Positions 1 to 23,403 of a stretch of 64,000 bases of DNA are shown in pieces. The stretch is from Acidobacteriota bacterium (lineage in GTDB: Bacteria > Acidobacteriota > Thermoanaerobaculia > Gp7-AA8): positions 96,001-160,000 of the forward strand of contig JAFATB010000014.1 of NCBI GenBank assembly GCA_019244185.1. The letters are read 5' to 3'. Position numbers and translations under genes: made by a program. The notes beneath the pieces are model-generated. The model did not search any database. It was not told the DNA's origin and worked only from the letters and a program-made list of their open reading frames with translations. The stretch's first letter is position 1; the number at the start of each line of letters is the position of its first letter.

Positions 1-5
1 GCCGC

Positions 6-2930
6 GTGACCGGCGGCAACGTCGTTCCGATCACGCAGGCGCAGGTGCGCGAGCTCGTGACCGTCGACGACGTCGACGTATCGAAAGTGCCGGCGTCGGA
101 CGCGGTGGAGCTCACGCTCGGCGACATCTTTCGCAATTGGGAAGCGCGCAACGGCGAGGAGAAGGCCGAGCTCGCGGCGCTGCTCGTCGAGGACGGGCGC
201 GTGCGGCGTCCAGTGCTCGTCTCCGGTGACAAGGGCGACCGTCCGCGCGAATGGCTGAAGCGCTGGCTGCTGCTCGCGAACCTGCTCGTCGAGAACAAGC
301 TGACGGTCGAACCGAAATCGCTGCCGTTCACGACGGGAAAGATTCTCTCGTTTCGCGGCATCCCGATCGGCGAGCTCTCGCGCGAGTTCGTCTGCCTGCC
401 GCTCGTCAACGGCTACTGGAACGACGAGGCGACGATCGGCGCGCTGTGGAATGCGGCGTCGCGGCTCGAGTCGCTCGCGACGTGGTGCCGCAACACGGCC
501 GCGGTCGCGCGCTGCCGAACGGCCGCACTGCCGGCGTGGCTCGACGTGCTGCTCTTCGCGACCTCGCGCTACGCCGGCGTGACCAAGCAGTTCACGTCGC
601 AGAGCGTGACTGTGCGCTGGCCCGGCATCGCGGAGCCGGTCTCGCTGCCGCTGCCGAATGCCGCCGCCGGCAGTGCCGACGCGAAAGACTGCGTAGCCGC
701 GGCGGCGGAGGCGTTCGGCGTGCTCACGCCGCAGCCGTCGCCCGCGGAGATGTCGCCGGCCGTGCGCGCGGTGGTGCAGGAGATCGCGCGCATCGCGCTC
801 CCGGTTCCGCGGCTCGGCGGCGGCGAAACGAAGAGCATCGTCTTCTCGGAGTTGCTGCCGCCGGCGGCGCGCGACTGCCTCTTCGGCGAGATCGTCGTCG
901 ACACCGACGCGCGATGCGCGTGGCGGCTCGAAGCGACCGCGCGCATCGTCACGTCCGTCGCCGGCGAGTTGCTGACGGAGAACGTCGGCTGCTTCCGCAA
1001 CGAGCAGCGGACGGAGTGGCTGACGCCGCTGCGGCGCGAGTACGTCCCGCTGCTCAAGTCGGGCGTCGTTGACGTGCGCAGCGAGGAGCACGGCCAGGAG
1101 CTGCGCGTCAGCGTGAGAGTCCACGACCGCACATTCGTCGAGTCGTACGCGGCGTCGCGCGTGCGTGCGATCAATCCGCTGCTGTTGCATTGGCCGGCGG
1201 CCGTCGCCAGTCCGTCGGCGAGCCTCACGGTGCTTTTCGACGTGCCGGAGCATCGCTACAGCCCGCAGACGGTGTACGCCGTGATGCACGACGCGCAGGC
1301 GAAGGCGTGGACGCTCTCCGCGCCGCTGAGCGAGCGGCACTCGCTGCACTACCTCGCCACCGACGGCAACGTGCCGCACAGCCTCTCGTTCGACCTCGAG
1401 CGTCACGACGTCGGCTTCGTGAAGATCGAGCGCGCGGTGCAGCACCTCGAAGACGCCACGCAGCGCGTCGCCGTCGACTTCGGCACATCGGCAACCGTCG
1501 TCGCGATCGACGGCGCGCAGAAAACGGAAGTGCTCGATCTCCTCGCCGCCGGCGCCGATGCGACCGCCGAGGTGTGGAAGGGGAGCGCGCTGGAAGCGTT
1601 CCAGTGGTACGGGACGCGTCCGGTGGATTCGACGATCCGCGAGAAGCGTCGCGCGCCGAGCGCGCTGGTCTATCTCGGATCGGCGAAAGATGCGCGTCCG
1701 CCGCGGCCGCAGTACGGCGATCACGTCCTGCTCGATCAGGACGACTGGCAGTGGAAGAGCGACGGCACGTCGCTGCTCTTCGACATCAAGTGGACGCGCG
1801 AGCGCGCGTATCGCGAGGCGTTTCTCGTCCACCACCTCGAGCAGTGCATCGCCGCCGCACTCAGCAAAGGCATCGTGCACAGCCGCCGGCTCTCCGTCAT
1901 CTTCACGATGCCGCTGCGGCAGCGCGCCCGCGCGGCGGATTTCGTCGCGGAGATCGAAGGCGTCATCGCGACCTTGCACCGCCGCACCGGACTGCAGCTC
2001 GAGTCGCGGTTCGCGTACGAGTCGGAAGTCATCGCGCCGATCGAAGCGCCGGCGACCGATGTCGACGCGATCGTGATCGCGGACCTCGGCGGCGGAACGC
2101 TCGATTTGTTCGCGAAGCACTTCGGCCGCGGACGCAGGGGCGGCGCGCGCAACGTCGTCTTTGAGAGCGCGCGCATCGGCGGTCACTCGCTCGTCGAATG
2201 GCTGACGCGCGACTTCGGCGGCACCGAGCTCGCGGAGTATCGCCGCAAGCTGCGCATCGGCTCCTTGCCGCAGCTCGACGAAGCGTCGTCGCGCATCGCC
2301 GCGAGTTACTTCGACGTCGTGAAGCGCTTCACCGCGCTCTGGATGGATTCGGTCTGGCGCTACTGGACCGGCGGCGACCAGCCAGGCCGCGTGCACGTGC
2401 AACTCCTCGGCATGGGCTGGTCGCTGCCGGCGTCGCCGGACGAGCAGATGGCGCTGCATCTCACCGACATCGCGCGCGCCCTCGGCTCGCAACTCGCGTA
2501 CAGCCGCTACGAGGATCCGACGCTGCCCGGCAATCCGAAGGAGCTGCTGGCGCGCCGCACGATCCTGCACGGCGGCGCGACGCGCGGCGACTTCGTCGCG
2601 TTCGAACCGGCGGCGGTGAACGGCATCGAAGTCAGCGTCGCGGGCGAAGTCCGCCGCGACGACGAGCCGCTGCGCGGGCTCGGCGCGAACACGCCCGCCG
2701 TCGGCATCACCGCGAACGGACTGCAGCGCATCGCGAAGCTGACCGGCGCGCGCGAGGAGATCGTCGCCGCCGTGCGCGACGGCACGCGCATCGCGCTCAC
2801 CACGCGCTCGACCGGCGTCGACAAACACGACGGCGCCGTGCTCGAAGGCGTGAACGTCTGGGTCGCCAGCCCGCTGGCCATCGCCGCGGAAACGTACACG
2901 CGCCAGGTGCTGCTGCAGGTGCACGCATGA
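6..2930 (+). CDS. Large actin/Hsp70-superfamily ATPase with uncharacterised N-terminal half (974 aa)
   Basis: Phosphate-1 motif VAVDFGTSATVV, connect-1 FAYESE, phosphate-2 IADLGGGTLDL, later IGGHSL and LLGMGW in the C-terminal half. GTG start overlaps a TGA (GTGA at 6-9), suggesting coupling to an upstream off-window gene. Confidence 0.75.
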   Translation: MTGGNVVPITQAQVRELVTVDDVDVSKVPASDAVELTLGDIFRNWEARNGEEKAELAALLVEDGRVRRPVLVSGDKGDRPREWLKRWLLLANLLVENKLTVEPKSLPFTTGKILSFRGIPIGELSREFVCLPLVNGYWNDEATIGALWNAASRLESLATWCRNTAAVARCRTAALPAWLDVLLFATSRYAGVTKQFTSQSVTVRWPGIAEPVSLPLPNAAAGSADAKDCVAAAAEAFGVLTPQPSPAEMSPAVRAVVQEIARIALPVPRLGGGETKSIVFSELLPPAARDCLFGEIVVDTDARCAWRLEATARIVTSVAGELLTENVGCFRNEQRTEWLTPLRREYVPLLKSGVVDVRSEEHGQELRVSVRVHDRTFVESYAASRVRAINPLLLHWPAAVASPSASLTVLFDVPEHRYSPQTVYAVMHDAQAKAWTLSAPLSERHSLHYLATDGNVPHSLSFDLERHDVGFVKIERAVQHLEDATQRVAVDFGTSATVVAIDGAQKTEVLDLLAAGADATAEVWKGSALEAFQWYGTRPVDSTIREKRRAPSALVYLGSAKDARPPRPQYGDHVLLDQDDWQWKSDGTSLLFDIKWTRERAYREAFLVHHLEQCIAAALSKGIVHSRRLSVIFTMPLRQRARAADFVAEIEGVIATLHRRTGLQLESRFAYESEVIAPIEAPATDVDAIVIADLGGGTLDLFAKHFGRGRRGGARNVVFESARIGGHSLVEWLTRDFGGTELAEYRRKLRIGSLPQLDEASSRIAASYFDVVKRFTALWMDSVWRYWTGGDQPGRVHVQLLGMGWSLPASPDEQMALHLTDIARALGSQLAYSRYEDPTLPGNPKELLARRTILHGGATRGDFVAFEPAAVNGIEVSVAGEVRRDDEPLRGLGANTPAVGITANGLQRIAKLTGAREEIVAAVRDGTRIALTTRSTGVDKHDGAVLEGVNVWVASPLAIAAETYTRQVLLQVHA

Positions 2931-3631
2931 ACCAGATGCCGGTGATCCTCGCGCTCGCGGTTCTCGCGCTGACGATCGTGCTCACCGCGCTCGCGCTGAC
3001 GATGCGCCTGCGCGCGCTCGAGAAAAGCGTCCACGCGGCGCAGGACCGCGGCCGCGCGTCGAAGGACAAAGACACGCGGCGCGAAGAGCTGGCGCAGCTG
3101 AAGAGCGAGCTGCAGAAGAGCATCGAGTCGCTGCGCTCGACGATCGTGAATGTGCCGGTGGAAGTGGTGCGTCGGCTGCCGCGGCAAAACTTCGATGCAG
3201 CTCCGCCGCGCGCGATGAATCCGCCGCCGGCATCGCGCAGCGTGTTCCGCGATGAGCGCCAAGCCGAGCATTACGCTGAGTCAGTCTCCGCGGAAGACGG
3301 AGCCGCGCAGCTGCTTGCGCTCGCGAACCGCATCGTGCAGCAGAACTCCACCACGCTCGACGCCGTGCGCGCGAGCACCGACGCTCTCGCCGCGCACGTC
3401 ACCGTCTGGCCGCCGTCGGGGGAAGGCACTCCGATCGCGTTCATCGTCGAGCATCGCGGCACGTGGTACGCGGTCCCGAACGTCGTCAAGCCGGCGCGGC
3501 TGCCGAACGACTGGTTCAACCGCGCCGACTTCGGCGTGAACGACGAGATCCGCCGCGTCGAATCGCTGCCGCGCCTCACGCGCCGCGGCGACGACTTCGA
3601 AGTGCAGCACGCCGGAGTGTTCTCGCGATGA
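2927..3631 (+). CDS. Membrane-anchored coiled-coil protein with small C-terminal beta domain (234 aa)
   Basis: ATGA overlap with the previous stop. N-terminal hydrophobic helix PVILALAVLALTIVLTALAL, heptad segment EELAQLKSELQKSIESL, Pro-rich linker, C-terminal globular segment. Confidence 0.75.
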   Translation: MNQMPVILALAVLALTIVLTALALTMRLRALEKSVHAAQDRGRASKDKDTRREELAQLKSELQKSIESLRSTIVNVPVEVVRRLPRQNFDAAPPRAMNPPPASRSVFRDERQAEHYAESVSAEDGAAQLLALANRIVQQNSTTLDAVRASTDALAAHVTVWPPSGEGTPIAFIVEHRGTWYAVPNVVKPARLPNDWFNRADFGVNDEIRRVESLPRLTRRGDDFEVQHAGVFSR

Positions 3632-5013
3632 CGGTGCTCTCGCTGCAGGCTCCTCGGCCTCCGGCGCGGCGGCTCTTCTGGGAGCCGTGGCTCGCCGTCG
3701 TCGTCGCGGCGGCGCTGTACCTGCGCGTCGCGGCCGGCCAGTGGGGCGGGCTCGCCGCGCTCGCATGCGAGCTCGCGCTCGCGGTGATCCTGCGCGCGCA
3801 GCTGTTGCGGCGCGCGGACGAAGAGGCGGAGCTGACGGAGCGCCTCGCATCGCGCGACCTCTCGATCACCGACGTCGATCGCCTGATCGGCAGCACCGCG
3901 GAGCGTGTGCAGGGGATGTTCGCCACCGCGTCGAGCGCCGTGCTGGCCACGGGGATGGCGGCGTCCGCGTTTCTGCTGCTGTTCTACGCGAGCGCCGGAA
4001 CGACCGGCGGCGGCATCGTGTCGGTCGCGCCGAAGGCGTTCGTCGCGACCGGCTACGCGATCCTCTGCGCGCTGGCGCTGACGCGCGACGCGCATCACCT
4101 GAACGCGACGATCTTCGAGCCGCTGCGGCGGAAGAAACTCGACGACGCGAATCGCGAGCCGACGCCGGCGACGCGATCCGCGGTCGCGCCGGAGTCGCGG
4201 ACGTCGCGCGTCGAGGAGCTCATCGAACAGCTCGTCTCGATGCAGATCAGCCAGCTGCAGGCGCTCCACGAAGCGAATCAGCAGCTCGCCGCCGCCGCGT
4301 CGGAACGCGTCGACGAAGAGTCGGGCGCGGTGCGCGTGAAGCTCGCGAAGGGACTCACCGATTTCCGCAAATCGGTCGAGCAGCTGAACGAGATCGTGCA
4401 GTCGCTCAACGCGCGTTTCGACGCACTCACGCACGAGGACGCGGCGCTCTTCGAGCAGCACCGGCGCGAGCTCGTGAGCGAGATCGTGCGGTTACCGCAG
4501 CAGGTCATCGACCGCACCGCGGGACTCATCGCCACGTCGGTGACGCGGGTCGAGGAGCAGTTCCGCGCGACGCTGCAGACGATTCACGACGACGAGATCC
4601 GCCGCGCGCGCGATCTGCTGGCCGGCGAATTCCGCACGCTGCGCGATCAATTCGAGCTCACGGAGCATTCCGTCTCCGCGATCAGCACGCGCTTCAACGA
4701 CGTCGTCTCCTCGCTCGACGCGCTCGCCTCCGCGTTCGACCGCGGCGCGAAGTCGGTTGTCGGCAGCGCCGCGGAGTTCACGCGCGAGGCGGAGTCGCTC
4801 GTCGCGTCCGTCACCACGGCGTTGGGCCGGCTGGGCGACGCGGACGAGACGAACGCGTCGCTGCTCACGCCGCTCACCGAAGCCGCGACCGCGGTGCGCA
4901 AAGCGTCGTCGCTCGTCGCCACCGACATGCGCAAGGTCGCCGCGGAACGCGAGCGCCTCGGCCGCGTGCGGCTGAAGCTCCTCGAGCTGCTGCCGAACGG
5001 GCAGGAGAACTGA
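3628..5013 (+). CDS. ZorA-like / MotA-TolQ-ExbB-type membrane protein with long alpha-helical tail (461 aa)
   Basis: ATGA overlap. N-terminal hydrophobic helices, then a TM pair (SAVLATGMAASAFLLLF; GIVSVAPKAFVATGYAILCALAL) followed by about 290 aa of amphipathic helical sequence. Lies directly upstream of a MotB/ZorB-like gene. Confidence 0.65.
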   Translation: MTVLSLQAPRPPARRLFWEPWLAVVVAAALYLRVAAGQWGGLAALACELALAVILRAQLLRRADEEAELTERLASRDLSITDVDRLIGSTAERVQGMFATASSAVLATGMAASAFLLLFYASAGTTGGGIVSVAPKAFVATGYAILCALALTRDAHHLNATIFEPLRRKKLDDANREPTPATRSAVAPESRTSRVEELIEQLVSMQISQLQALHEANQQLAAAASERVDEESGAVRVKLAKGLTDFRKSVEQLNEIVQSLNARFDALTHEDAALFEQHRRELVSEIVRLPQQVIDRTAGLIATSVTRVEEQFRATLQTIHDDEIRRARDLLAGEFRTLRDQFELTEHSVSAISTRFNDVVSSLDALASAFDRGAKSVVGSAAEFTREAESLVASVTTALGRLGDADETNASLLTPLTEAATAVRKASSLVATDMRKVAAERERLGRVRLKLLELLPNGQEN

Positions 5014-5015
5014 CG

Positions 5016-5741
5016 ATGTTCGGGCGCGGCGTCAACTACTGGATCTCGTGGGCCGACCTCACGTTCATGCTCTTCATCGGCGGACTCGCGGCCGTCGCGT
5101 TCAGCGACGAGCAGCGGACGGCGGCGCAACAGGAACTCGCGGCCGCGAAGGGTGCGCTCGCGGAAGCGCGCGGCGAGCTCGACGTCCTCCGCAGCCACAG
5201 CAATCCGTGCGCGGATGCGAGTCCGTTCCTGGCCGGCTTCTCGAGCTGCGTCGCGCGGGCGACCGGCCGCAGACAGGTGCCGGGCAGCGGCTGCTTCGTG
5301 ACCGTCGGCGAAGACGTGATCCGCTTCGAGAAGGGGAAGGCCGTGCCGCTCGACGCGTCGTCCGCCGACGCCGTGGCCGGCTGCCTCTACACGAACGCGC
5401 TGCGGTTCGCGGCGGCGGATCCGCGCTCCTTCAACGCGATCACGATTCACGTCGACGGACATACCGACTGCGTCGGCACGCGCGCGGGAAACGAGAAGCT
5501 CGGCGCGGACCGCGCGTTCAGCGTGTACGCGCGCCTCCTCGAACGCGCGGAGAGCGATCCGGTCTGGCTATCGCCGAAGCAGCGGCGCGCGTTCCTCGGA
5601 CGCATCGCCGTGCGCTCGTTCGGCGACACGCGTCCCGTCGAAGGCTCACGGTGCATCGCGCCGTTCGGCTGGGAAGGCGATCGCCGCGTCGTCGTCTCCG
5701 TGCAGCTCGCGACCGAAGGCGCCGCGGGGAGGCGCGGGTGA
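5016..5741 (+). CDS. ZorB-like / MotB-type protein with OmpA-like peptidoglycan-binding domain (241 aa)
   Basis: N-terminal YWISWADL-TM motif with the conserved ion-binding Asp of MotB/ZorB. OmpA_C motif VDGHTD...NEKLGADRA and DRRVVV. Six Cys. RBS AGGAG upstream. Confidence 0.85.
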   Translation: MFGRGVNYWISWADLTFMLFIGGLAAVAFSDEQRTAAQQELAAAKGALAEARGELDVLRSHSNPCADASPFLAGFSSCVARATGRRQVPGSGCFVTVGEDVIRFEKGKAVPLDASSADAVAGCLYTNALRFAAADPRSFNAITIHVDGHTDCVGTRAGNEKLGADRAFSVYARLLERAESDPVWLSPKQRRAFLGRIAVRSFGDTRPVEGSRCIAPFGWEGDRRVVVSVQLATEGAAGRRG

Positions 5742-5917
5742 TCTCGACGATCGTGATGGTCGCCGTCGTCGTGCTGCTCGCGTTCACGCTCGCCGCGGCG
5801 CGGCGTTCGTGGCAGCGGCAGCTCGAACTGGAACGCGCAAACGAGACGATGCAGCGCGAGCTACAGCGCCACCGCGACACCGTGCATTCGATTCTTCGGG
5901 AGTTGCAGAATCCATGA
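5738..5917 (+). CDS. Small single-TM coiled-coil protein (59 aa)
   Basis: GTGA overlap with the upstream stop and ATGA overlap with the next start. MISTIVMVAVVVLLAFTLAAA then a charged heptad segment. Confidence 0.65.
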   Translation: MISTIVMVAVVVLLAFTLAAARRSWQRQLELERANETMQRELQRHRDTVHSILRELQNP

Positions 5918-7131
5918 GAAAGCCTGCGTTGCTGCTCGCGGTCTGGTTCGTCGTGACGGCGTGCGGTGGAGGTGAAGAACGCGCCGTCACCGTCGAATGC
6001 CGGCCGTCCGTGAGCGTCGTCATTCCGGCCGCGGGCAACGCGCGACGCAAGGCGGAGGCGGCGCAGGCGCGCGAAGTCGTGCAGGTGTACTGGGACGTCT
6101 CACGATCGATGCGCGATTTCGCGGTCGCGCGCAAGCATGGCGGCGGCGCGGAAGCGACCGACGATCTCACGCCGGTAGTCGAAGCGCTCGACAGCGGTGT
6201 CTTGCTTTCCGCGCATGCGGAGGCGGTCGAACAGTACGGCGTCGGCGAATCGATCGCGCGGCTGGCCACCGCGCGCGCGGCGCTGCATCCCACCGCGAAC
6301 CGCACCGCGCTGCATCTCGCCGCGGAGCAACTCGGCGACGCGCTCGCAACCGGCCGCGCGCAAGCCGCGATCGTCGTCTCCGACATGGAGCTCGATACGC
6401 CGCCGCGCGCGTCGACCGACGCCACGGTCTGCGGCGGCGTGCCGCTGCCGAGCACGCCGCTGGCGGGCTCGCTGTTCGGCCGCTGCTTCGAGAACGCGGT
6501 GCTCGCCGTCGACGCGCCGAGCGCCATGCGCGCGCGCCTGCTCGCGCACGTCTTCCGCAAGGCCTCGCACGGACGCGAGCTGTTCATCCTCCTGCTGGCG
6601 ACGGACCACGCGTTCGGCCAGCACATCTCCGAACAGATCGTGAGCCGTCTCGACTTCGAGCGGCAGGTCATCTTCGATGCGAACGCGGTGGCGGCGTCGA
6701 ACGTCCGCGGCTGCCGCTTCACGATCCCCGAGTCGCGCGTGCGTCCGCGCGATCTGCCGCGGTGCGGCGCGAAGTGCTTCGATCGCGACGCATCCATCGA
6801 AACCGAATGCGATCTGCGCCGTCCGGCGAACGATGCTTGGATCGAGCCCGCGGGACGCGGCTCGACCGGCACCTCGTACGAGTCGCTGCAGAAACGGGCA
6901 GGCGACCGCGAGGAGCCGGCGCGCATGCGATTCACGATTCCGTGCAGTACGCCGCCTGGGCGATTCGACGCGTCCGTCTCGTTCACATGGCGCCGGCGTT
7001 TAGCGCGCAACGCAGCCGAGCCGTTCGCGCAAAAGGAAAGTGTGCGCGATCTCTTCGACAGTCTCTCCGACGCGATCGTGCGCGTCGTCGCGCCGCGCAC
7101 GCTGCGCGTCAGCGTGAATCTCCACCAATGA
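5914..7131 (+). CDS. vWA (MIDAS)-domain lipoprotein (405 aa)
   Basis: Lipoprotein signal MRKPALLLAVWFVVTAC. MIDAS DxSxS (WDVSRSM), T (NRTAL) and D (VVSDME). Cys-rich C-terminal region. Confidence 0.75.
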   Translation: MRKPALLLAVWFVVTACGGGEERAVTVECRPSVSVVIPAAGNARRKAEAAQAREVVQVYWDVSRSMRDFAVARKHGGGAEATDDLTPVVEALDSGVLLSAHAEAVEQYGVGESIARLATARAALHPTANRTALHLAAEQLGDALATGRAQAAIVVSDMELDTPPRASTDATVCGGVPLPSTPLAGSLFGRCFENAVLAVDAPSAMRARLLAHVFRKASHGRELFILLLATDHAFGQHISEQIVSRLDFERQVIFDANAVAASNVRGCRFTIPESRVRPRDLPRCGAKCFDRDASIETECDLRRPANDAWIEPAGRGSTGTSYESLQKRAGDREEPARMRFTIPCSTPPGRFDASVSFTWRRRLARNAAEPFAQKESVRDLFDSLSDAIVRVVAPRTLRVSVNLHQ

Positions 7132-7244
7132 ATGACGCTCCCACGCCGGCGACCGACGGCCTGCTCAGCTGCGCGATCGCCGCGGGCGTGCTCTGTCTGA
7201 CGCTCGTCGTGCTCGCCGTGATCGCGCTCAGCGCGGCGTCGTGA
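7128..7244 (+). CDS. Putative 38-aa membrane microprotein
   Basis: ATGA overlap with the vWA gene stop. MNDAPTPATDGLLSCAIAAGVLCLTLVVLAVIALSAAS is mostly one hydrophobic helix. Confidence 0.45.
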   Translation: MNDAPTPATDGLLSCAIAAGVLCLTLVVLAVIALSAAS

Positions 7245-12676: not shown

Positions 12677-14884
12677 TCAGACACCGCCGCCTCGCTTTTG
12701 TGGCGTCGACTCCCACGTCGTCCGCTCAATCGACCAGTTCGACGGCGTGACGACGGCGCGCGTGGAGCTGCCGAGCGACGCGAGTAGCTCTTCGAGCGGT
12801 GTCGACGGCCGCGTGCCGTTCGACCGCACGCCGTTCCATTCGAGAAGCGACGGATTCGGCAGCGGCTGATCGGTGGTCAGCAGCACGTACGTGTCGACGC
12901 CGTACGGCGGCGAGACCTCGAAAGCGCAGAGCGGGATCTCGGCGGGCGGCGCTACCGACGGGTCGATCGGGAAGCGGTTCTCCACCGAGCCGCTCGCGGC
13001 GCGCGGATAAAGAAGGATGCTCTGGCCGCGGCTGTCGATCACGAAGAGGTAGACGAAGCGGCCGTCGACGCGCGGCGGCAGATTCACGCCGCGCAGCACC
13101 GCCTGATAGCGCTCGTGTCCCATGACGCTCGTTCCGTGCACGAGCGCGTTGTCGTGCGCGCGCCGCAACGCGAGGTGATACGGCGAGCGCGCCGCGGGCG
13201 GCGAGTCGAGCAGTTGCCACGCGGCGATGCGGCGCAGGCGGAGCGCGGTGTCGCGCAGCGTCTCCGCGTCGCTCGTCCACGCGCTGCGCACCGGCAGGCC
13301 CGACTTGCGGCGATCCGCGCGCGTGACGCCGGGGCGGATCCACGCGTACGCGAGCCGCCCGTTCACGAAGCGTCCGGTGAGGATGTAGTCGGCCTCGGCG
13401 GGATCGTTCGCGACATCGTTCGGCGGAATGGCGAGCCGTTCGACGATGGCCTGCGGCGCGGGCAGCTGCACGAAGAGCGACGCGCCTTCCGGCACCGCGC
13501 GCACGGCGTTCTCCGCGCCGTCGGTATCCGGCGTGAACGCCGTTGACGCGCCGCGCGGGCGCAGGAGCTCCCACTGCTCGTTACCGCGTCGCAGCACGTA
13601 CTGCGGCGTCGTGGCGGTGGGATCGTGAATCCAGCGCAGACCGCGTTGCGCCGCGATGCGCGTGAGCGCGCGCGCGAGTCCGCCGATCGAGACTTCGCCC
13701 AGCGCGACTTGCGGCAGCGCGACGCGCAGCGGTCGCGCGGGCGCGGCGAGCCAGCCGGACGGTTCGAGCAACGTCCCGGCGTCGACGCGTCCTTCTTCCA
13801 CACGCGCCTCGGCATTGCCGAGTCCGACCAGCGCCGTGACGCGGACGCGCGTGCGCGGATCTCCGGCCACGCGCAGCACGCTGCCGGCGGAGAGTCCGTT
13901 CGCCCAGCCGCCCTGCAGCAGCACGTTGCCGTTCGCGAGGAGTTTGGCCACCGCGACGCGCGTGCGTTCGTCGCCACGTGCACTACGGCGTTCGTCACGC
14001 GTGCCGAGGAACGGCGTGTTGCGCGCGGAAGCAGTCGCGGCGAACACCGGCTCCTGAAACGGCATCTCCGTGCGCAGGCGCGCCTGCGTGCGCAGAAACA
14101 TCTCGAACGCCGACTCGTCCGGCGCGGCGTCGCGCATCGCGCGCATCCAGCCCCACGTGAACGCGCCGTGCAGATTGTTGCGGTCGTCGCGTTTCTCGCG
14201 CGCGTCCTCGAAGTCCTGCGACGCGGCGATGACGACGGCGCCGCGCGACTCCGGACGCGGTCCCGCGTCCGCGCCGTCGGCGACGTCGCGCTGATCGGGC
14301 TTGATGCCGCGCGCGACCGCGCCGGTCGGCAGTCCGCGCGCACCGGAGCCGCTGTGGCAGTCGTCGAGCATCACCGTGAGGCGCGCGCCGCGATCGAGGA
14401 CGCGGTTGAAGAGGCGGCGCAGTTCCTTGTCGCGGATGTCGGGCGCGCCGCGACGCGAGTCGGCGGGGACGATCGATTCGTCGAGATGATCCGGCTCGTC
14501 CGAGCGCGAGTTGCGCACCTGCGAGCCGTGGCCCGCGTAGTAGAAAAACACGATGTCGCCTTCGGCCGCCGTCGCGACGAGCTGCGTTTCGATCGCGCGC
14601 AGGATCGCCGCGCGCGTCGCCGCCTCATCGGTCAGCGTCACGATGTCCTGCAGTGCGAAGCCGCGCAACGCGACGAGCAACTGCCGCATCGCCTCGACGT
14701 CGTTGACCGCGCCGCCGAGGGGCGGCCAGTCGCGTTCCGGCGCGGCGGGTCCGAGCGACGGGAGATGCGAGGCCGAGTAGTCGTTGATGCCGACGAGCAG
14801 CGCGCGTTTGTGCGGCGCGGCGGCCGCGTCGTGGGCGAAGATCACGGCGCAGAGGAGCGCGAAACAGGCGTGCTTCAGCGACAT
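12677..14884 (-). CDS. Secreted metacaspase (C14) with C-terminal DUF4384-like domain (735 aa)
   Basis: Signal peptide MSLKHACFALLCAVIFAHDAAA. KRALLVGINDY, catalytic FYYAGHGS and LDDCHSG. C-terminal FVYLFVIDSRG...LLYP...PPYGVDTYVLLTT pattern. Confidence 0.85.
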   Translation of the reverse strand: MSLKHACFALLCAVIFAHDAAAAPHKRALLVGINDYSASHLPSLGPAAPERDWPPLGGAVNDVEAMRQLLVALRGFALQDIVTLTDEAATRAAILRAIETQLVATAAEGDIVFFYYAGHGSQVRNSRSDEPDHLDESIVPADSRRGAPDIRDKELRRLFNRVLDRGARLTVMLDDCHSGSGARGLPTGAVARGIKPDQRDVADGADAGPRPESRGAVVIAASQDFEDAREKRDDRNNLHGAFTWGWMRAMRDAAPDESAFEMFLRTQARLRTEMPFQEPVFAATASARNTPFLGTRDERRSARGDERTRVAVAKLLANGNVLLQGGWANGLSAGSVLRVAGDPRTRVRVTALVGLGNAEARVEEGRVDAGTLLEPSGWLAAPARPLRVALPQVALGEVSIGGLARALTRIAAQRGLRWIHDPTATTPQYVLRRGNEQWELLRPRGASTAFTPDTDGAENAVRAVPEGASLFVQLPAPQAIVERLAIPPNDVANDPAEADYILTGRFVNGRLAYAWIRPGVTRADRRKSGLPVRSAWTSDAETLRDTALRLRRIAAWQLLDSPPAARSPYHLALRRAHDNALVHGTSVMGHERYQAVLRGVNLPPRVDGRFVYLFVIDSRGQSILLYPRAASGSVENRFPIDPSVAPPAEIPLCAFEVSPPYGVDTYVLLTTDQPLPNPSLLEWNGVRSNGTRPSTPLEELLASLGSSTRAVVTPSNWSIERTTWESTPQKRGGGV

Positions 14885-16430: not shown

Positions 16431-19400
16431 TTACCGCGCGGGCGCGAACGGTGACGAGCCATGGCCGATCACCTGAAACGGAGCCCACACGAGCACCGAC
16501 TGGAGGCCGGAGGAGTTGTTTTTCCGGAGCAGTTCGATTTGCGCTTTCTGCATCGCCACTGCCGCGTCGTCGCCCATCCTGTAGTGCTGATGGAAAGACA
16601 CGAGCAGGGGCTCCACTGTGGCGTCGCCGATGTTCCATAACGTCCCGACGACGGCTGGGACGCCATTGGCGATGAGCGGCCGTACGAGCGGACCGACGCC
16701 TTCCGCGCCGACCGGCATACCGGCCGCGCTGCTGCACGCCGCGAGCACGACCAGCCGCGCGCGCCCCGGCTTCAATTGCGACAGCAGATGAGCGGCGTCG
16801 AGAGCGCCTGGTTGTCCCGGCGTCTGCGCGAAATGCAATGAGGAACTGGAAGGCGTCTGTGCGTCGACGATCGCGTGCGCGGCGACATGAACGATCGCAT
16901 CGTCGCGGACGCCTGTAATGAACGCGTCCGCCGTGGCGTCCGCTCCCGTCCGCACGACCGCCCCTGCATACGATTGCGCGATCGCGTGCACTTCCGCCTC
17001 GGCACCGGGCAAATGCGCGCCGTCCGGATTCCCGATCAGCAGCGCCGACGTGTCGCGCGGTAATTGCGCGTCGCGCGTGACCGACAGCGTGTACAGTGCC
17101 GCGCTCCCGGCCGTTTCGACCGGAGCATCTTCAATGACATAGCGGCGCGTCTCCGGATTGCGCAGCGCGGAAAACGGCAATCCGTACATCGGTCCGTCCG
17201 GCACGAATACCAGCCGCGCGGCGCCGTTCGTCATTTGTGCCACGGCGCGCAACGGCTCGGCGAGCAAGGCGTCGTATGCGGCGAACAGCGTGGCATCGAG
17301 TGTCGTCGTATCGCGCGTCGGCACCGCGCGCGACAACGCATTGTTCCAGCGCTCGACGTCGCGCTGCCGCACGCCGAGCGGGAGCAATCGCCACGCGTCG
17401 CGGCTGATGACCCACGCGTACGTGCGGTCCTCCATCACCGTGTATTCAATGAGAAACGTTCCGGGCGGCAAGGTGCGCTGCAGCGCGGGCAGGTCGAGCT
17501 GGCTCGGCGCGTTCGGCGGCGGCGCGAGCTTCAAGGCGAGATTGAGCGGCTCGAACGCGCGCGAGCGGTCGGCATAGACGAACGCCTCCGCCTGCCGGTT
17601 CGTCTCGATCAGCTCGCGGATGAGGACGTGATACGCGTCCTCAAAGCGCGAGAAGTAATCGCTCCAGAGGATGTCCTCCCCGCCGCGGACGCGCTTCTCG
17701 AGGACGCGCGCTTCCTCCTGATGGAGCAGGTCGAGCGCCGCGCGCAGATCGGCCTCGCTCTCCCGCTCCAGCCCGGCGCGCCGTTCCGCCGCGGCGCGTT
17801 GTGCATAAAGGGACGCGCGAAACGCGCTGTATTCGAGGCCGCGCGAGAGATCGATGGCGGACGTGAACGCGGCCACGGCGCGTCGCGGATCGCGCGGTGC
17901 ATAGGCCTGAGCTTCCACCTCGGCAATGCGCGCGTCGAGCGCGACGCGGTATTGCGGAGAAGGATCTCTTGCGCTGAGCCGCCTGGCTTCGGCGAGATCC
18001 TGCAATGCGGCATGGTTGTGGCCGGTCAGGAGCTGATAGTCGGCGCGCCGGCGGAGTGCAATGGCGATGTTCGTCTGCAGATACGCGATCGCCACGAGCC
18101 GGTCGGGCGGCGTTTCGACGGACATCTGCTGGACGAAGCGGACGCCTTCATTGGCGTACTGCAGTGCGGCTTGCGGATGGCCGAGGGCAAGCGCCGATGC
18201 GGCCGATTCACCGAGGACGAGGTGCCGGTCGCGCGGTTGTCCGAGGAAGCGGCGATTGCGAACGGTGGCGAGCGCGTCGCTCCAGCCGCGCTCGGACTGG
18301 CCGAGGACGCGCAGGATGCCGAAGCGGCGCGTGGCGGTCGCGGTGAGACCTTCCGGATCGTGCAGCCGCCGGTACATCGCGCTGGCCTCGTCATAATGGG
18401 CCAGCGCCTCGAGATGCCGGTCCTGTTGCCAGAGCTGATACCCGGCGCCGGAAGTGAGCCACGCCTCGATGTTGGCGTAACCCCGCGCGTGCGTCTCGCG
18501 GCGCATGGCCTCGATCGCCGCGACGTCCTTCTTGGAGAAGGCCAGCCCGCCTCGGGCGTACAGAGCCGCGGGACTGCCGCCGAGCTGTAATTGCGGGACC
18601 GCCGCCGCGTAATACGTGTTGATACCGGGAAACGTCGTAATGCGCCCGTCGCGCAGCGCCGCGTAGCCCGCCTTCAATGCCGCGCGTTGCGCCGGATTCG
18701 CGGACGCCACCGCCGCGATCTCGTCGCGCGCGTAATGATTTCCGGTGATCCGCGTCCATGCGTCGGCGAGCGTGCGCGCATAAGGCAATTGATCGGGCAG
18801 CAGCTCGTCTTCCATGTACAGCAGCGCGCTCGACGGATGCAGGCGGACGATGCGCTCGACCGCGCGGCGGTCGCCGGCGCGCAGCGCGGCGTGGAGCCAC
18901 CGCGGCGACCATTGTTCGTCCCTCTGTTGTTGCAGCCGCCGCAGACGCTCGCGGGAGGTGGCGTCCTCGTTCTGCAGCGCGCCGAAGATCGCCATTGCGT
19001 CGGTCGTTAATCCCAGCGCTTCCTCGCACAAGGCGAGATTGAAGCGCGCGGCGGCCGGCGGCGGGATCGCGTTCGCGGCGTGAAACGCGGCGTCGAAGGC
19101 ATTGAGGTAATCGGCGGGCCGGTTCTGCCGCTGCGCGCGGATGTAATACGCGGCGGCGAGATCGCTCATGGCCGTGGCGTCGCGGTCGGCGAAATTCTTC
19201 AATGCCGCGATGCCGGCGTCGCTGCACGCCGTCTGGGCAATGGCCACGGAGACCGCCTGCTGCTCGGTGCGGATCGGGCGGCAATCCTTCTGGTCGGCAA
19301 GGCTCCAGTCGACCTCGACGCTCAGGCGCGGCTCGAGCCCCCACTCTTTGCGCGCATTCGTGTCTGACTTGGTGCAGTCGATCGATAGACTGCAGAGGAC

Positions 19401-19442
19401 GGCAGCGATGGCGATGAACGCGGAAGCTCTCAAGACTCTCAT
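16431..19442 (-). CDS. TPR-CHAT domain protease with N-terminal signal/anchor (about 1003 aa)
   Basis: C-terminal CHAT motifs LVFVPDGPMYGLPFSAL, VHVAAHA (His), VVLAACSS (Cys), VVGTLWNIGD, WAPF. TPR-like helices. N-terminal hydrophobic segment after ATG 19442. Confidence 0.9.
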   Translation of the reverse strand: MRVLRASAFIAIAAVLCSLSIDCTKSDTNARKEWGLEPRLSVEVDWSLADQKDCRPIRTEQQAVSVAIAQTACSDAGIAALKNFADRDATAMSDLAAAYYIRAQRQNRPADYLNAFDAAFHAANAIPPPAAARFNLALCEEALGLTTDAMAIFGALQNEDATSRERLRRLQQQRDEQWSPRWLHAALRAGDRRAVERIVRLHPSSALLYMEDELLPDQLPYARTLADAWTRITGNHYARDEIAAVASANPAQRAALKAGYAALRDGRITTFPGINTYYAAAVPQLQLGGSPAALYARGGLAFSKKDVAAIEAMRRETHARGYANIEAWLTSGAGYQLWQQDRHLEALAHYDEASAMYRRLHDPEGLTATATRRFGILRVLGQSERGWSDALATVRNRRFLGQPRDRHLVLGESAASALALGHPQAALQYANEGVRFVQQMSVETPPDRLVAIAYLQTNIAIALRRRADYQLLTGHNHAALQDLAEARRLSARDPSPQYRVALDARIAEVEAQAYAPRDPRRAVAAFTSAIDLSRGLEYSAFRASLYAQRAAAERRAGLERESEADLRAALDLLHQEEARVLEKRVRGGEDILWSDYFSRFEDAYHVLIRELIETNRQAEAFVYADRSRAFEPLNLALKLAPPPNAPSQLDLPALQRTLPPGTFLIEYTVMEDRTYAWVISRDAWRLLPLGVRQRDVERWNNALSRAVPTRDTTTLDATLFAAYDALLAEPLRAVAQMTNGAARLVFVPDGPMYGLPFSALRNPETRRYVIEDAPVETAGSAALYTLSVTRDAQLPRDTSALLIGNPDGAHLPGAEAEVHAIAQSYAGAVVRTGADATADAFITGVRDDAIVHVAAHAIVDAQTPSSSSLHFAQTPGQPGALDAAHLLSQLKPGRARLVVLAACSSAAGMPVGAEGVGPLVRPLIANGVPAVVGTLWNIGDATVEPLLVSFHQHYRMGDDAAVAMQKAQIELLRKNNSSGLQSVLVWAPFQVIGHGSSPFAPAR

Positions 19443-20811: not shown

Positions 20812-23403
20812 ATGCGTGGCTCGCTCGCCCTCGCTCTCGTGCTCACCGCGTTCTCCCTTTCCGCACAGGAGCGTGAGCTCGACGCCGCAACGACTCGCGA
20901 TCTCGATTTCGCACTGACCCCGCGCACGGCGAAGCTGTCGGGCGATGCGTCCGTGATCCCGATCGAGATCGCGATCCCCGCGGACGAGCTGCAGTTCGTC
21001 GAGGAGGGCGGCGTGCTCGCCGCGACGTTCTCCGTGCGCGCGGAAGCGCGCGGACAGACGACGCGGCTCGACGAGCCGCAGCGCATCACCGCGCCGCGCG
21101 GCACGACGCCCGCGGGCGCGGTGACGCGGCGCTTCGACGTGCATGTGGAGCGCGGCACGACCACGATCGACGTCGTGCTGCGCGACGAAAACGCGCAACG
21201 CGAGGCGCGCCGCACGCTGGCCATCGACGGACACGAGGTGCATCTCGTCGACGTGGCCGACGTGCGCGCGGCGGATGCGCTCTGGCGCGACGCGCTCGAC
21301 CGCGCGCAGCGCGAGCACAAACCGATCGTGGTCTTCTTCGAGACGCGCCCGTGCAGCCGCTGCCGCACGTTCGCGAGCGCCACGCTGCCGCATCCCGCGA
21401 TCCAGCGCCGCCTCCCGCCCGTGGTCGTCGTCACATTGCCGGCGCAGGCCGGCGAGGCGGCGCGGCAGTGGCAGTCCGCCGACGCGGGTGTCGCGTTTTT
21501 CGATCGACGCGGCGTGCTGCGCGCGCGCTGGCCGATCGTCCCCGACACGACCGACTTCGGCATCATCCTCGACTCCGTCGCCGCGGTCGCGAATGACTTC
21601 GAGCGCGCCGCGCAGCTCTTCGACGCGAACGACCCGGGCGCCGCGGAGCTCGCCGTCGCGAACGGATTCGGACGCCTGGGGCGCATCGCCGACGCGCGTG
21701 CGGCGCTCGCCCGCGCGCAGGCGTTGCAGGATCGCGCGACGCAGCAGGCGGCGCTGGTCATCGGCGCGATCTTCGACGCGAACGAAGGCAGAGTCGCGGA
21801 CGCGCTGACGCTGCTCCAGCCGCTCGCCGCCTCGGCGGTGAATGCGCAAATCGCCGCGGATGCGTGGCTCGCGATCGGCGCGCTGCAGCGCGCCCGCGGC
21901 GCGAACGACGCTGCCGCACGCGCGTTCACCGCGGCGCTCGAACATCTCGACCCGAATGCGCCGCGCGCGGCGGACGCACGGCAGGCGCTCGATGAGCTGC
22001 GCAACGGGATGCGCGTCGCCGGCGCCGTGCGCGTGTTGCCGCCGTCGCGACAGGTCGTCAGCGGCCGGCAGCTCGTACGCACGCACGTCGGCTCGCCCGC
22101 CGTCGCGCGCGTGGCGTTTTCCATCGATGGCAAGGAAGCCGCGCGCGTGACGCGGCCGCCGTTCTCGGCCACGCTCGATTTCGGCGACGTGCCGGAACGC
22201 CACGTCATCCGCGCGGTCGCCGTCGATCGCAAAGGCCGCGCGATCGGCCGCGACGAGCGCGCGGTCAACGACGCCGGCGAGACGTTCTGGCTGCACTTCG
22301 TCTCGCCGCGGGAAGGTCCCGCGGACGGCAGCAAGGTGCACGTCGCCATGAACCTGCGCGTGCCGCCGACGCAAACGCTGCGGCGGCTCGTCGTGTCGTG
22401 GAACGATGCCGAGCGCGCGGTGCTGCAGGCGCCGCCGTGGGAGACGGACGTCGCCATTCACAACGGCGAAGTCGGCGTGTTGCGCGCGGTCGCGGAGCTG
22501 AACGATGGGCGCACGTCGGAAGACGCGGTGCTCCTCAACGCCGGCGGCGCCGCGGGCCGCGCGGACGTGCAGCTCGTCGAGCTGCGGATGACGATCGCCG
22601 GCCGCGACGGCAACGCATCCGCCGTCACCGCGCAGGACATCGTCGTCCGCGAAGGCACGCGCTCGCGCCGCGTCGAATCGATCGCCTCCGCCGGGGAAAC
22701 GCCGCTCACGATCGGACTGCTCATCGACGTCTCCGCGAGCATGCAGGCCTCGCTCCTCGACGTGCAGGAAGCCGCCATCGGTTTCCTCGAGTCGATCCTC
22801 GGCCCGCGCGACCGCGCGTTCGTCATCACCTTCGACACGCGCGCGCGCCTCGTGCAGCCGGCGACCTCCGACGTCGCGCAGCTCCGCCGCCAGATCATGA
22901 CGCTGCGCCCCGACGGCCTCACGTCGATCCACGACGCGATGGTCCTCGGCCTCCTGCAGTTCGAAGGCGTGAAAGGCCGCCGCGCGATGATCGTCTTCAC
23001 CGACGGCCTCGACATCACCAGCGAGTACAAAGTCGCCGACGTGCGCGAGCTCGCGCGCCGCGTCTACGTGCCGATCCACGTCATCGCCTCGACGCCCGGC
23101 ACCGCCGCGCGATTGCGCGCGTCGAGCGAGCCGCCGAAAGCGGAGCGCAGACTCGACGCGCCGAACGCGGAGCTGATGTCGATCGCGCGGGCCACCGGCG
23201 GCTCCGCGCAGACGCTCGACAACCTCGCCGAGCTCCCGCGCCTCTACGCGCAAATCGAGTCCGCCCTGCGCGCGCAACTCCTCGCCTTCGTCCGCACCGA
23301 CCCCGGCACGCGCGCCAACGAATGGCGCCCGGTTACCGTGCACGTGAACGGCCGCAAAGACGCGGAGGTGTTTGCGCCCGAGGGGTATTACGCGCCGTGG
23401 TGA
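20812..23403 (+). CDS. Secreted multidomain vWA protein (thioredoxin-like CxxC, TPR-like, Ig-like, vWA; 863 aa)
   Basis: Signal peptide; KPIVVFF...PCSRC; helical repeats; VAFSIDG...RAVAVD Ig-like unit; MIDAS LIDVSASM, TSIHDA, VFTDG. Confidence 0.85.
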   Translation: MRGSLALALVLTAFSLSAQERELDAATTRDLDFALTPRTAKLSGDASVIPIEIAIPADELQFVEEGGVLAATFSVRAEARGQTTRLDEPQRITAPRGTTPAGAVTRRFDVHVERGTTTIDVVLRDENAQREARRTLAIDGHEVHLVDVADVRAADALWRDALDRAQREHKPIVVFFETRPCSRCRTFASATLPHPAIQRRLPPVVVVTLPAQAGEAARQWQSADAGVAFFDRRGVLRARWPIVPDTTDFGIILDSVAAVANDFERAAQLFDANDPGAAELAVANGFGRLGRIADARAALARAQALQDRATQQAALVIGAIFDANEGRVADALTLLQPLAASAVNAQIAADAWLAIGALQRARGANDAAARAFTAALEHLDPNAPRAADARQALDELRNGMRVAGAVRVLPPSRQVVSGRQLVRTHVGSPAVARVAFSIDGKEAARVTRPPFSATLDFGDVPERHVIRAVAVDRKGRAIGRDERAVNDAGETFWLHFVSPREGPADGSKVHVAMNLRVPPTQTLRRLVVSWNDAERAVLQAPPWETDVAIHNGEVGVLRAVAELNDGRTSEDAVLLNAGGAAGRADVQLVELRMTIAGRDGNASAVTAQDIVVREGTRSRRVESIASAGETPLTIGLLIDVSASMQASLLDVQEAAIGFLESILGPRDRAFVITFDTRARLVQPATSDVAQLRRQIMTLRPDGLTSIHDAMVLGLLQFEGVKGRRAMIVFTDGLDITSEYKVADVRELARRVYVPIHVIASTPGTAARLRASSEPPKAERRLDAPNAELMSIARATGGSAQTLDNLAELPRLYAQIESALRAQLLAFVRTDPGTRANEWRPVTVHVNGRKDAEVFAPEGYYAPW

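Follow-up and report, generated by a model that had tools for sequence, protein, structure and literature searches.

We describe an operon at the upstream edge of a 64,000-nucleotide stretch of DNA (hereafter the window; G000:C4:96001-160000) from the 5.3-Mb, 70% GC genome of an uncultured, soil-type Acidobacteriota bacterium (GenBank assembly GCA_019244185.1). The operon encodes a MotB/ZorB-like protein (g4), a candidate ZorA-like partner (g3), a giant cytoplasmic protein with predicted tubulin-like and Hsp70-type parts (G1), a lipoprotein (g6), and four small membrane proteins (g0, g2, g5, and g7). Zorya anti-phage systems consist of ZorAB plus ZorC/D, ZorE, or ZorF/G (Hu et al., PMC11946911; Mariano et al., PMC11890865). 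From gene content and homology, we tentatively read the present locus, giving it somewhat under an even chance, as a Zorya-type envelope-sensing, ion-driven motor system with a different output module.

The eight-gene operon

Seven plus-strand open reading frames (ORFs), the first at 6-2930 and the others as listed below, are chained by ATGA/GTGA overlaps at 2927, 3628, 5738, 5914, and 7128, and by a 2-nt gap at 5014-5015. Their GC content at third codon positions (0.82-0.92 in all seven) is that of the coding pattern of the genome, and a custom frame-wise log-odds gene caller built for this genome returned exactly the same seven genes; coordinates, composition, and gene caller thus agree with the seven chained same-strand genes described in an initial annotation, which had been made from the window sequence alone. 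The extent that it gave to the unit did not hold, as the first gene begins outside the window and another gene precedes it. G1 is cut by the window edge, with a GTG start 1,356 bases upstream (G000:C4:94644) and a full length of 1,428 amino acids (aa), a start borne out by 30 homologues of 1,426-1,438 aa that match it end to end at 70-91% identity. Its close protein relatives come from Thermoanaerobaculia (Acidobacteriota) metagenome-assembled genomes. The additional gene, g0, adjoins G1 and is conserved with the operon in close relatives, and the unit therefore comprises at least eight genes (window -1963 to 7244), as follows (negative positions lie upstream of the window).

g0, ending 14 bases 5' of G1: 197 aa, four hydrophobic segments
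G1, -1356 to 2930 (in the window 1 to 2930, the C-terminal 975 codons), plus strand: cytoplasmic protein of 1,428 aa
g2, 2927 to 3631, plus strand: 234 aa, N-terminal membrane anchor and coiled-coil/Pro-rich linker
g3, 3628 to 5013, plus strand: 461 aa, candidate ZorA-like A subunit
g4, 5016 to 5741, plus strand: 241 aa, MotB/ZorB-like protein
g5, 5738 to 5917, plus strand: 59 aa, single-pass membrane protein with a short helical tail
g6, 5914 to 7131, plus strand: 405 aa, lipoprotein with the lipobox VVTAC and a Cys-rich C-terminal part
g7, 7128 to 7244, plus strand: 38 aa, single-pass membrane peptide

Every product but G1, which has no hydrophobic segment at all, is a membrane or periplasmic protein. 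Searches of Pfam, NCBIfam, and PADLOC found no helicase or nuclease among the operon proteins, in line with what the initial annotation had reported, and gave no significant match for the in-window part of G1 or for g2, g5, g6, and g7. A promoter and terminator scan returned no promoters and six terminator-like sites against 6.0 expected, i.e., nothing above chance.

Protein families encoded by the operon

The best-recognized member of the operon is g4. Its sole membrane helix bears the sequence WISWADL, in which W9, A13, and D14 do not vary among 26 family members, and the protein carries six cysteines and an OmpA-like domain (Pfam PF00691, E-value (E) 5.5e-7, above the cut-off; motif GHTD...N..LG..RA); the helix motif, the cysteines, and the OmpA-like domain had been pointed out in the initial annotation. 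The OmpA-like domain is predicted to be periplasmic and of the peptidoglycan-binding type, and the PADLOC ZorB1 models match in this part (6e-7 to 3e-3). By these sequence features, g4 is clearly MotB/ZorB-like. Among related loci, many B subunits of a sister layout (beta, see below; L029-L035 and related loci) keep the helix as W..FADLMT, while another conserved C-terminal domain replaces the OmpA-like one.

The preceding gene product, g3, has three to four hydrophobic segments (including 39-57, 101-119, and 130-148), an invariant E48, a PKAFxxT motif, and a helical tail of 291 aa rich in Ala, Leu, Glu, and Arg; such a tail (304-560 aa) is present in 19/19 members of the g3 family. The initial annotation, which gave g3 a pair of membrane segments, was right about a helical tail of about 290 aa. 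PADLOC models match g3 for ZorA1 (E 1.5e-4) and ZorA2 (2e-3), both confined to the tail, and a single-sequence PDB search gave no match for g3. The link to the motor families is indirect, running through a sister family, c3, to which g3 is related by profile comparison (hhalign 96.9%, E 1.4e-10). The best PDB match of c3 is 8vvi_F (E 2.7e-4 for the membrane part alone, 5.7e-6 for the whole profile), which belongs to the type II ZorAB of Sulfuricurvum kujiense (PMC11890865); the next matches of the c3 membrane profile are the MotA chains 8ucs_C and 6ysf_E (E about 0.05). Compared with two ZorA2 sequences of the same phylum, c3 reached 94% by hhalign (E 1.3e-7). The ZorA/ZorB pairing proposed at the outset accordingly stands for the B subunit, while g3 qualifies as a putative ZorA relative transitively, via c3, a direct match of its membrane part having failed. 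Two further candidates were examined and rejected: family c23 of Myxococcota-type loci as a ZorA-like family (0.4% and 0.1%), and a g2-like C-terminal domain in the relative P0087 (hhalign 2.2%), a g3/g2 fusion that would have hinted at binding of g2 to the g3 tail.

The giant protein G1 combines a tubulin/FtsZ-like N-terminal domain (aa ~1-220+), a middle part without an assigned family, and an Hsp70-type ATPase core (aa ~930-1300). For the last of these, the evidence is strongest. The C-terminal third holds VAVDFGTS (phosphate-1) and ADLGGGTLD (phosphate-2) motifs, and a profile of this part built from 44 diverse homologues matched DnaK in the PDB at E 3.7e-8; Hsp70-family nucleotide-binding domains made up all of the 60 best listed of 136 PDB matches, with both phosphate motifs aligned, and D19, G21, S23, D221, G223-G225, and D228 are invariant in the profile. 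Profile comparison thus confirmed the C-terminal third as an Hsp70-type actin-fold ATPase, as first annotated, though a single-sequence PDB search had found no match for G1. The tubulin-like half, lying beyond the window edge, had been missed, as had the earlier papers on FtsZl1-vWA-OmpA and tubulin-HSP70-vWA gene sets discussed below.

That tubulin-like domain sits in the N-terminal 450 aa of G1. Two motifs, GGTGQHV (aa 9-15) and GSGVGGTGAG (aa 170-179), stay unchanged in homologues down to 23% identity and supply the tubulin-superfamily loops T1 (GGxG) and T4 (GGTGxG) at family-like spacing; canonical Tubulin_2 members of the same class have GLGGTG at the start and xAGGTGSG near position 165. 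The Pfam Tubulin_2 model (PF13809) scored G1 at 19 bits (E 9.3e-4), under its 27-bit curated cut-off, and a PF13809 scan of this genome did not return G1. Two distant G1 homologues gave sub-threshold Pfam matches to Tubulin_2 (E 8.3e-5) and to Tubulin (E 7.3e-4 and 0.074), and an ESM-feature search with the N-domain placed Tubulin_2 on 25 of the 30 nearest clusters (score 0.95). By hhalign the N-domain aligned at 97.6% with the N-terminal end of P0132; this relative of 1,606 aa has a precomputed PF13809 match and also matches the Hsp70-like profile. Directly compared with 12 canonical Tubulin_2 domains of the same class, it reached 22%, with the T4 loop alone aligned, and we therefore call the domain tubulin-like, apparently nearest the Tubulin_2/FtsZl1 type, and not a Tubulin_2 member. 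The middle region of G1 aligned weakly with family c6 (hhalign 44%).

Two side observations concern relatives of G1 and its domains. P0111, an 854-aa relative of the Hsp70-like part, carries the source name Methanomethylicaceae archaeon, so that the split form may reach archaea. Elsewhere in the same genome (G000:C4:716719-722642), a canonical Tubulin_2 (FtsZl1) gene (E 1.2e-24) is flanked by a pair of VWA_2 genes, forming a classical FtsZl1-vWA operon apart from the G1 locus.

The lipoprotein g6 is homologous to the lipoprotein families c1 (97.4%) and c18 (94%) of sister systems. Its N-terminal domain contains residues that may form a metal-ion-dependent adhesion site (MIDAS), namely D61-x-S63-x-S65, T131, and D157, and in a comparison with 16 vWA domains of this genome (hhalign 61%, E 7.9e-5) the DxSxS, T, and D positions fell in register. 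In an ESM-feature search vWA clusters scored 0.75-0.76, with no named family above 0.9. The N-domain is therefore probably vWA-like, and of the 'MIDAS lipoprotein' first proposed, the MIDAS/vWA part has no more than moderate support (the 61% alignment, with no Pfam match). Other VWA_2 matches in the window lie at 22717-23007 and 45119-45535, in ORFs of 866 and 1,266 aa, the former adjoining a 1,081-aa protein with a kinase-like start.

Among the small membrane proteins, g2 has a conserved C-terminal domain (YAVPNVVKPxRLPxDWFN) that corresponds to no Pfam family, and flanking charges predict a cytoplasmic body; it is homologous (hhalign 82%, E 1e-5) to family c4, whose gene comes after G1 in sister systems. 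The conservation of g5 is limited to close (alpha-type) loci, g7 is weakly conserved (found in 4 loci), and g0 resembles family c2 weakly (hhalign 30%).

Conservation and genomic setting

Related loci were collected by pattern scans, 48 from species-representative genomes and 33 from metagenomes, with counts that depend on two peptide patterns per collection scan and gene calls that come from a custom simple caller. The species-representative loci belong to Thermoanaerobaculia, Vicinamibacteria, Bryobacterales, Longimicrobiales, Rhodothermales, Myxococcota, and proteobacteria, and G1 homologues in the fused form occur in Acidobacteriota, Gemmatimonadota, Rhodothermales, and proteobacteria. The distribution is patchy: of 301 genomes sampled across the class, 6 held any G1 match, and the close form occurs in 3 of 18 genomes of the genus, this one included. 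The family is also rare (17 g3-type and 70 G1-type clusters in billions of proteins), and all database relatives are unnamed or 'hypothetical'. Clustering and profile comparison resolved three layouts.

alpha, the window's own: g0-G1-g2-g3-g4-g5-g6-g7
beta: c2-G1-c4-c1-c3-g4
gamma, mostly in Myxococcota: separate tubulin-like and Hsp70-like genes

Across these layouts, families c1 and c18 are equivalents of g6, c4 of g2, and c3 of g3. Co-occurrence was counted in 36 non-duplicate loci whose sequence extends 10.5 kb or more past the G1 start (29 with a fused G1 and 7 split), after dropping the duplicates L017, L085, L086, L087, L088, and L091. The 29 fused loci contain the lipoprotein without exception (29/29), the ZorA-like gene in 25/29, the MotB-like gene in 23/29, and all three in 22/29; in L021 a g3-like gene is present though the hidden Markov model missed it. 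Among the 7 split loci, the lipoprotein occurs in 6 and the motor pair in one. Genes beyond g0-g7 are not conserved among related loci. The gene set is thus retained together elsewhere, which the initial annotation had named as a test of its own proposal.

These counts bear on the simplest alternative, that the genes are chance neighbours or form two unrelated modules, G1-g2 and g3-g7. The mostly motor-less split gamma loci and the different gene orders of alpha and beta would fit such an arrangement. Against it stand the four-base start/stop overlaps that chain the genes, the retention of G1 with its three partners in 22 of the 29 fused loci, across several phyla and despite rearranged order, and the lack of conservation of any neighbours beyond g0-g7. 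Because the set is conserved, we consider this reading largely refuted and highly improbable.

Several defence-type genes lie around the operon. Genes for tRNA-Arg and tRNA-Thr lie 600-800 bases upstream of g0, and also upstream are the Shango genes (SngA E 1.6e-89, SngB 3.8e-182, SngC 2e-263) together with an MkoA-like helicase. Downstream, on the opposite strand, are genes for a caspase-domain protein, a CHAT protein, a DUF4236 protein, and a metallo-beta-lactamase-fold protein. Three neighbours have the following positions.

P-loop GTPase-like gene, window -2565 to -2041 (L004 3435-3959), minus strand: 174 aa, between tRNA-Thr and g0
caspase-domain protein, window 12680-14884, minus strand: 735 aa; Peptidase_C14 E 3.2e-19, PADLOC caspase 4.4e-23
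TPR-CHAT protein, window 16434-19442, minus strand: 1,003 aa; CHAT E 4.5e-52

The caspase/CHAT block on the minus strand, which also holds DUF4236 and unassigned genes, may represent a protease-based conflict system in its own right. Near the gene of a distantly related G1 homologue (L014, G193:C3:12000-31000), a caspase-FGE-sulfatase fusion (2629-4944, minus strand; Peptidase_C14 E 4e-19, FGE-sulfatase E 2.5e-37) is encoded downstream, a few genes away, echoing the caspase genes beside the window operon. The GTPase-like gene is diverged (GPPMSGRS, NKQD; Pfam MMR_HSR1 E 8.8e-4) and was found by iterative search at this locus only (1/82 loci), for which reason we treat it as a neighbour and not as part of the system.

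As the initial annotation had anticipated, canonical Zorya partners do not lie beside the operon: PADLOC models for ZorC, ZorD, ZorE, ZorF, and ZorG found none in the seven operon proteins and ten flanking proteins (14 kb upstream, 12 kb downstream). In the flanks of 43 other loci (148 proteins), defence-type or nuclease-type domains comprised PIN (7), SNase (3), Uma2 (2), GmrSD_C (2), AbiEii (1), AbiU (1), and ZacA (1).

Relation to known systems and possible function

To our knowledge, three kinds of Zorya are known, all of which join a ZorAB motor to DNA-acting or unknown soluble partners. The present locus resembles them in its MotB-like B subunit with a conserved helix Asp and a peptidoglycan-binding-type domain, in a candidate A subunit whose short membrane domain is followed by a cytoplasmic helical tail of great length, in the type II ZorA that stands closest, among solved structures, to the sister A-subunit family c3, in a soluble partner encoded in the same operon, and in its position among defence genes. 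It differs in having no ZorC/D/E/F/G and, in their place, a tubulin-like/Hsp70-like giant, a periplasmic lipoprotein, and four small membrane proteins; ZorA and MotA_ExbB models do not recognize the membrane part of g3, and the g3 tail (about 300 aa) is shorter than that of type I ZorA. Since none of the soluble partners that define Zorya is present, and the A subunit does not pass the direct family tests, we place the locus outside Zorya.

In Zorya, ZorA5B2 is a peptidoglycan-binding proton motor in which phage invasion triggers a signal through the ZorA tail that recruits ZorC and ZorD (PMC11946911, PMC11890865). By analogy, we picture g3 and g4 as a stator of the MotAB/ZorAB type in the inner membrane, in which g3 would encircle g4 and send its roughly 300-residue helical tail into the cytoplasm, while g4 would be held by peptidoglycan, with Asp14 as the ion carrier. 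The lipoprotein g6, with g0, g5, and g7, could couple this motor to envelope events such as phage penetration or envelope damage. Upon activation, movement of the g3 tail might act on G1, perhaps via the membrane-anchored g2, and G1, with its tubulin-like GTPase and Hsp70-like ATPase, would in turn polymerize or remodel a target at the membrane, an output that would replace the ZorC/D or ZorE nucleases. A bolder and rather doubtful version would make the locus a fourth Zorya-type immune class, in which a vWA-lipoprotein-gated, ZorAB-like rotary sensor drives a 160-kDa tubulin-Hsp70 effector that blocks or traps the invader at its entry site.

Several results weigh against a Zorya-type motor system at this locus. 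For the A subunit, direct comparison of the g3 membrane part with ZorA, MotA, and ExbB gave no significant match: Pfam MotA_ExbB (PF01618) matches 0/19 g3-family members and touches 2/18 c3 members (best E 5.9e-4, below the cut-off), the g3 membrane profile compared with ZorA2 gave 0.4% by hhalign, and a HMMER scan with that profile over 1.84 billion representatives returned 17 relatives and no large MotA family. Many beta-type B subunits are without the OmpA-like motif (no GHTD). The vWA assignment of g6 is weak, without a Pfam or PDB match, and its counterpart c1 scored 5.9% against vWA, with Pro in place of the third MIDAS serine. The operon contains no nuclease or other obvious killing or degrading effector. 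Finally, the flanks in which defence-type domains were counted are also rich in housekeeping genes (six amidohydrolases, as well as tRNA synthetases and folate enzymes), and since these counts come without a baseline, we claim no enrichment of defence genes.

Some of the same facts would suit a housekeeping-type envelope or membrane-remodelling machine, in which a G1 scaffold is powered or positioned by the MotAB-like motor and tied outward by the lipoprotein, with vesicle formation, local wall remodelling, surface adhesion, or gliding as possible outputs. Makarova and Koonin (2010) reported operons in which FtsZl1 is accompanied by vWA, OmpA-like, and GTPase genes, and suggested that these FtsZl1-vWA-OmpA sets act in membrane remodelling (PMC2875224). 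The likeness lies in a tubulin-superfamily protein with vWA-type, OmpA-family, and many membrane proteins, and here a diverged GTPase next door; in addition, our operon encodes membrane or periplasmic proteins throughout, G1 excepted, searches of its products found no nuclease- or toxin-like effector, many ordinary metabolic genes occupy the flanks of related loci, and this genome has a canonical Tubulin_2 gene with vWA neighbours elsewhere. The differences are that G1 falls below the Tubulin_2 cut-off and is fused to an Hsp70-like ATPase, and that the OmpA-like protein, which PMC2875224 took in its FtsZl1 operons for an outer-membrane barrel, is here a MotB-type motor subunit beside a ZorA-like protein. 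The patchiness (3/18 genus genomes) and rarity of the family are more in keeping with an accessory trait than with a core function of the envelope; the locus lies between tRNA genes, Shango, and the caspase and CHAT genes; among solved structures, the A-subunit family comes closest to ZorA, a defence protein, and not to a motility stator; and neither gliding partners (Glt/Agl type) nor secretion partners were seen in the operon. On balance, we regard the remodelling machine as possible and yet unlikely.

Gliding in Myxococcus, the analogy drawn in the initial annotation, offers a related comparison, in which the AglRQS motor, MreB, and the vWA lipoprotein CglB work across the envelope. It has in common with our locus an actin-fold protein and, on the readings given above, a motor of the MotAB family and a lipoprotein of the vWA kind. 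Our operon, however, has no Glt-type envelope proteins, its actin-fold part is Hsp70-like and not MreB-like, its A subunit has a Zorya-type tail, and the Myxococcota (gamma) loci are mostly without the motor pair.

A further possibility, which we judge improbable, is a GTPase-centred conflict system of the tubulin/HSP70/vWA kind, in which G1 would be an NTP-dependent switch or assembly platform, the vWA protein a co-chaperone-like sensor, and the MotAB-like pair a lineage-specific anchor rather than a signalling motor. Kaur, Burroughs, Iyer, and Aravind (2020) predicted that tubulin, HSP70, and vWA sets form NTP-dependent conflict assemblies, and the systems that they describe combine TRAFAC GTPases with tubulin homologues, HSP70, and vWA proteins (PMC7159879). 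The same domain trio (tubulin, an HSP70 nucleotide-binding domain, and vWA) is predicted here; a diverged small GTPase gene adjoins g0 on the other strand, and the gamma loci keep the tubulin-like, Hsp70-like, and lipoprotein genes, with the MotAB-like pair in 1/7. Set against this, the GTPase was found in 1/82 loci, no GAP1 or FNIII components and no paired DO-GTPases, as in DO-GTPase/GAP1-N2 systems, were seen in the operon, and a MotAB/ZorAB-like pair is present, whereas the terms MotA, ExbB, TolQ, and proton have zero occurrences in the main text of PMC7159879. The systems presented there are mainly from Firmicutes and Actinobacteria, with tubulin and HSP70 genes separate, and our loci differ in phyla, while G1 carries both in one chain. 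The vWA protein here is moreover periplasmic, which makes direct chaperoning of the cytoplasmic G1 impossible.

Our preferred reading remains the Zorya-type motor with another output. Within the open-access literature searched (PMC2875224 and PMC7159879 being covered in their main texts), we found no description of a ZorAB/MotAB-like pair joined to tubulin-like/Hsp70-like proteins, and nothing relevant on a Zorya-like or type IV system or on a motor-tubulin link. Judging from sequence comparison, the motor pair, the tubulin-Hsp70 giant, and the lipoprotein appear to be an undescribed combination that overlaps both the FtsZl1-vWA-OmpA and the tubulin-HSP70-vWA themes.

Together, these observations suggest that a Zorya-like motor has here been given an output of an entirely different sort, namely a tubulin-like/Hsp70-like fusion NTPase. 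In the FtsZl1-vWA-OmpA operons, which have long lacked an explanation, the 'OmpA-like' gene would then encode the B subunit of an ion motor, and three computational predictions (Zorya, FtsZl1 membrane remodelling, and the tubulin/HSP70/vWA conflict systems) would be united in one machine encoded by a compact eight-gene unit. Should the locus serve in defence, it would provide a non-nuclease, cytoskeleton-type effector; should it serve in remodelling, it would represent a new use for 5:2-type motors. And if a fourth Zorya-type class were to prove correct, the tubulin and Hsp70 homologues of prokaryotes would serve as immune effectors, with a membrane motor to drive them.

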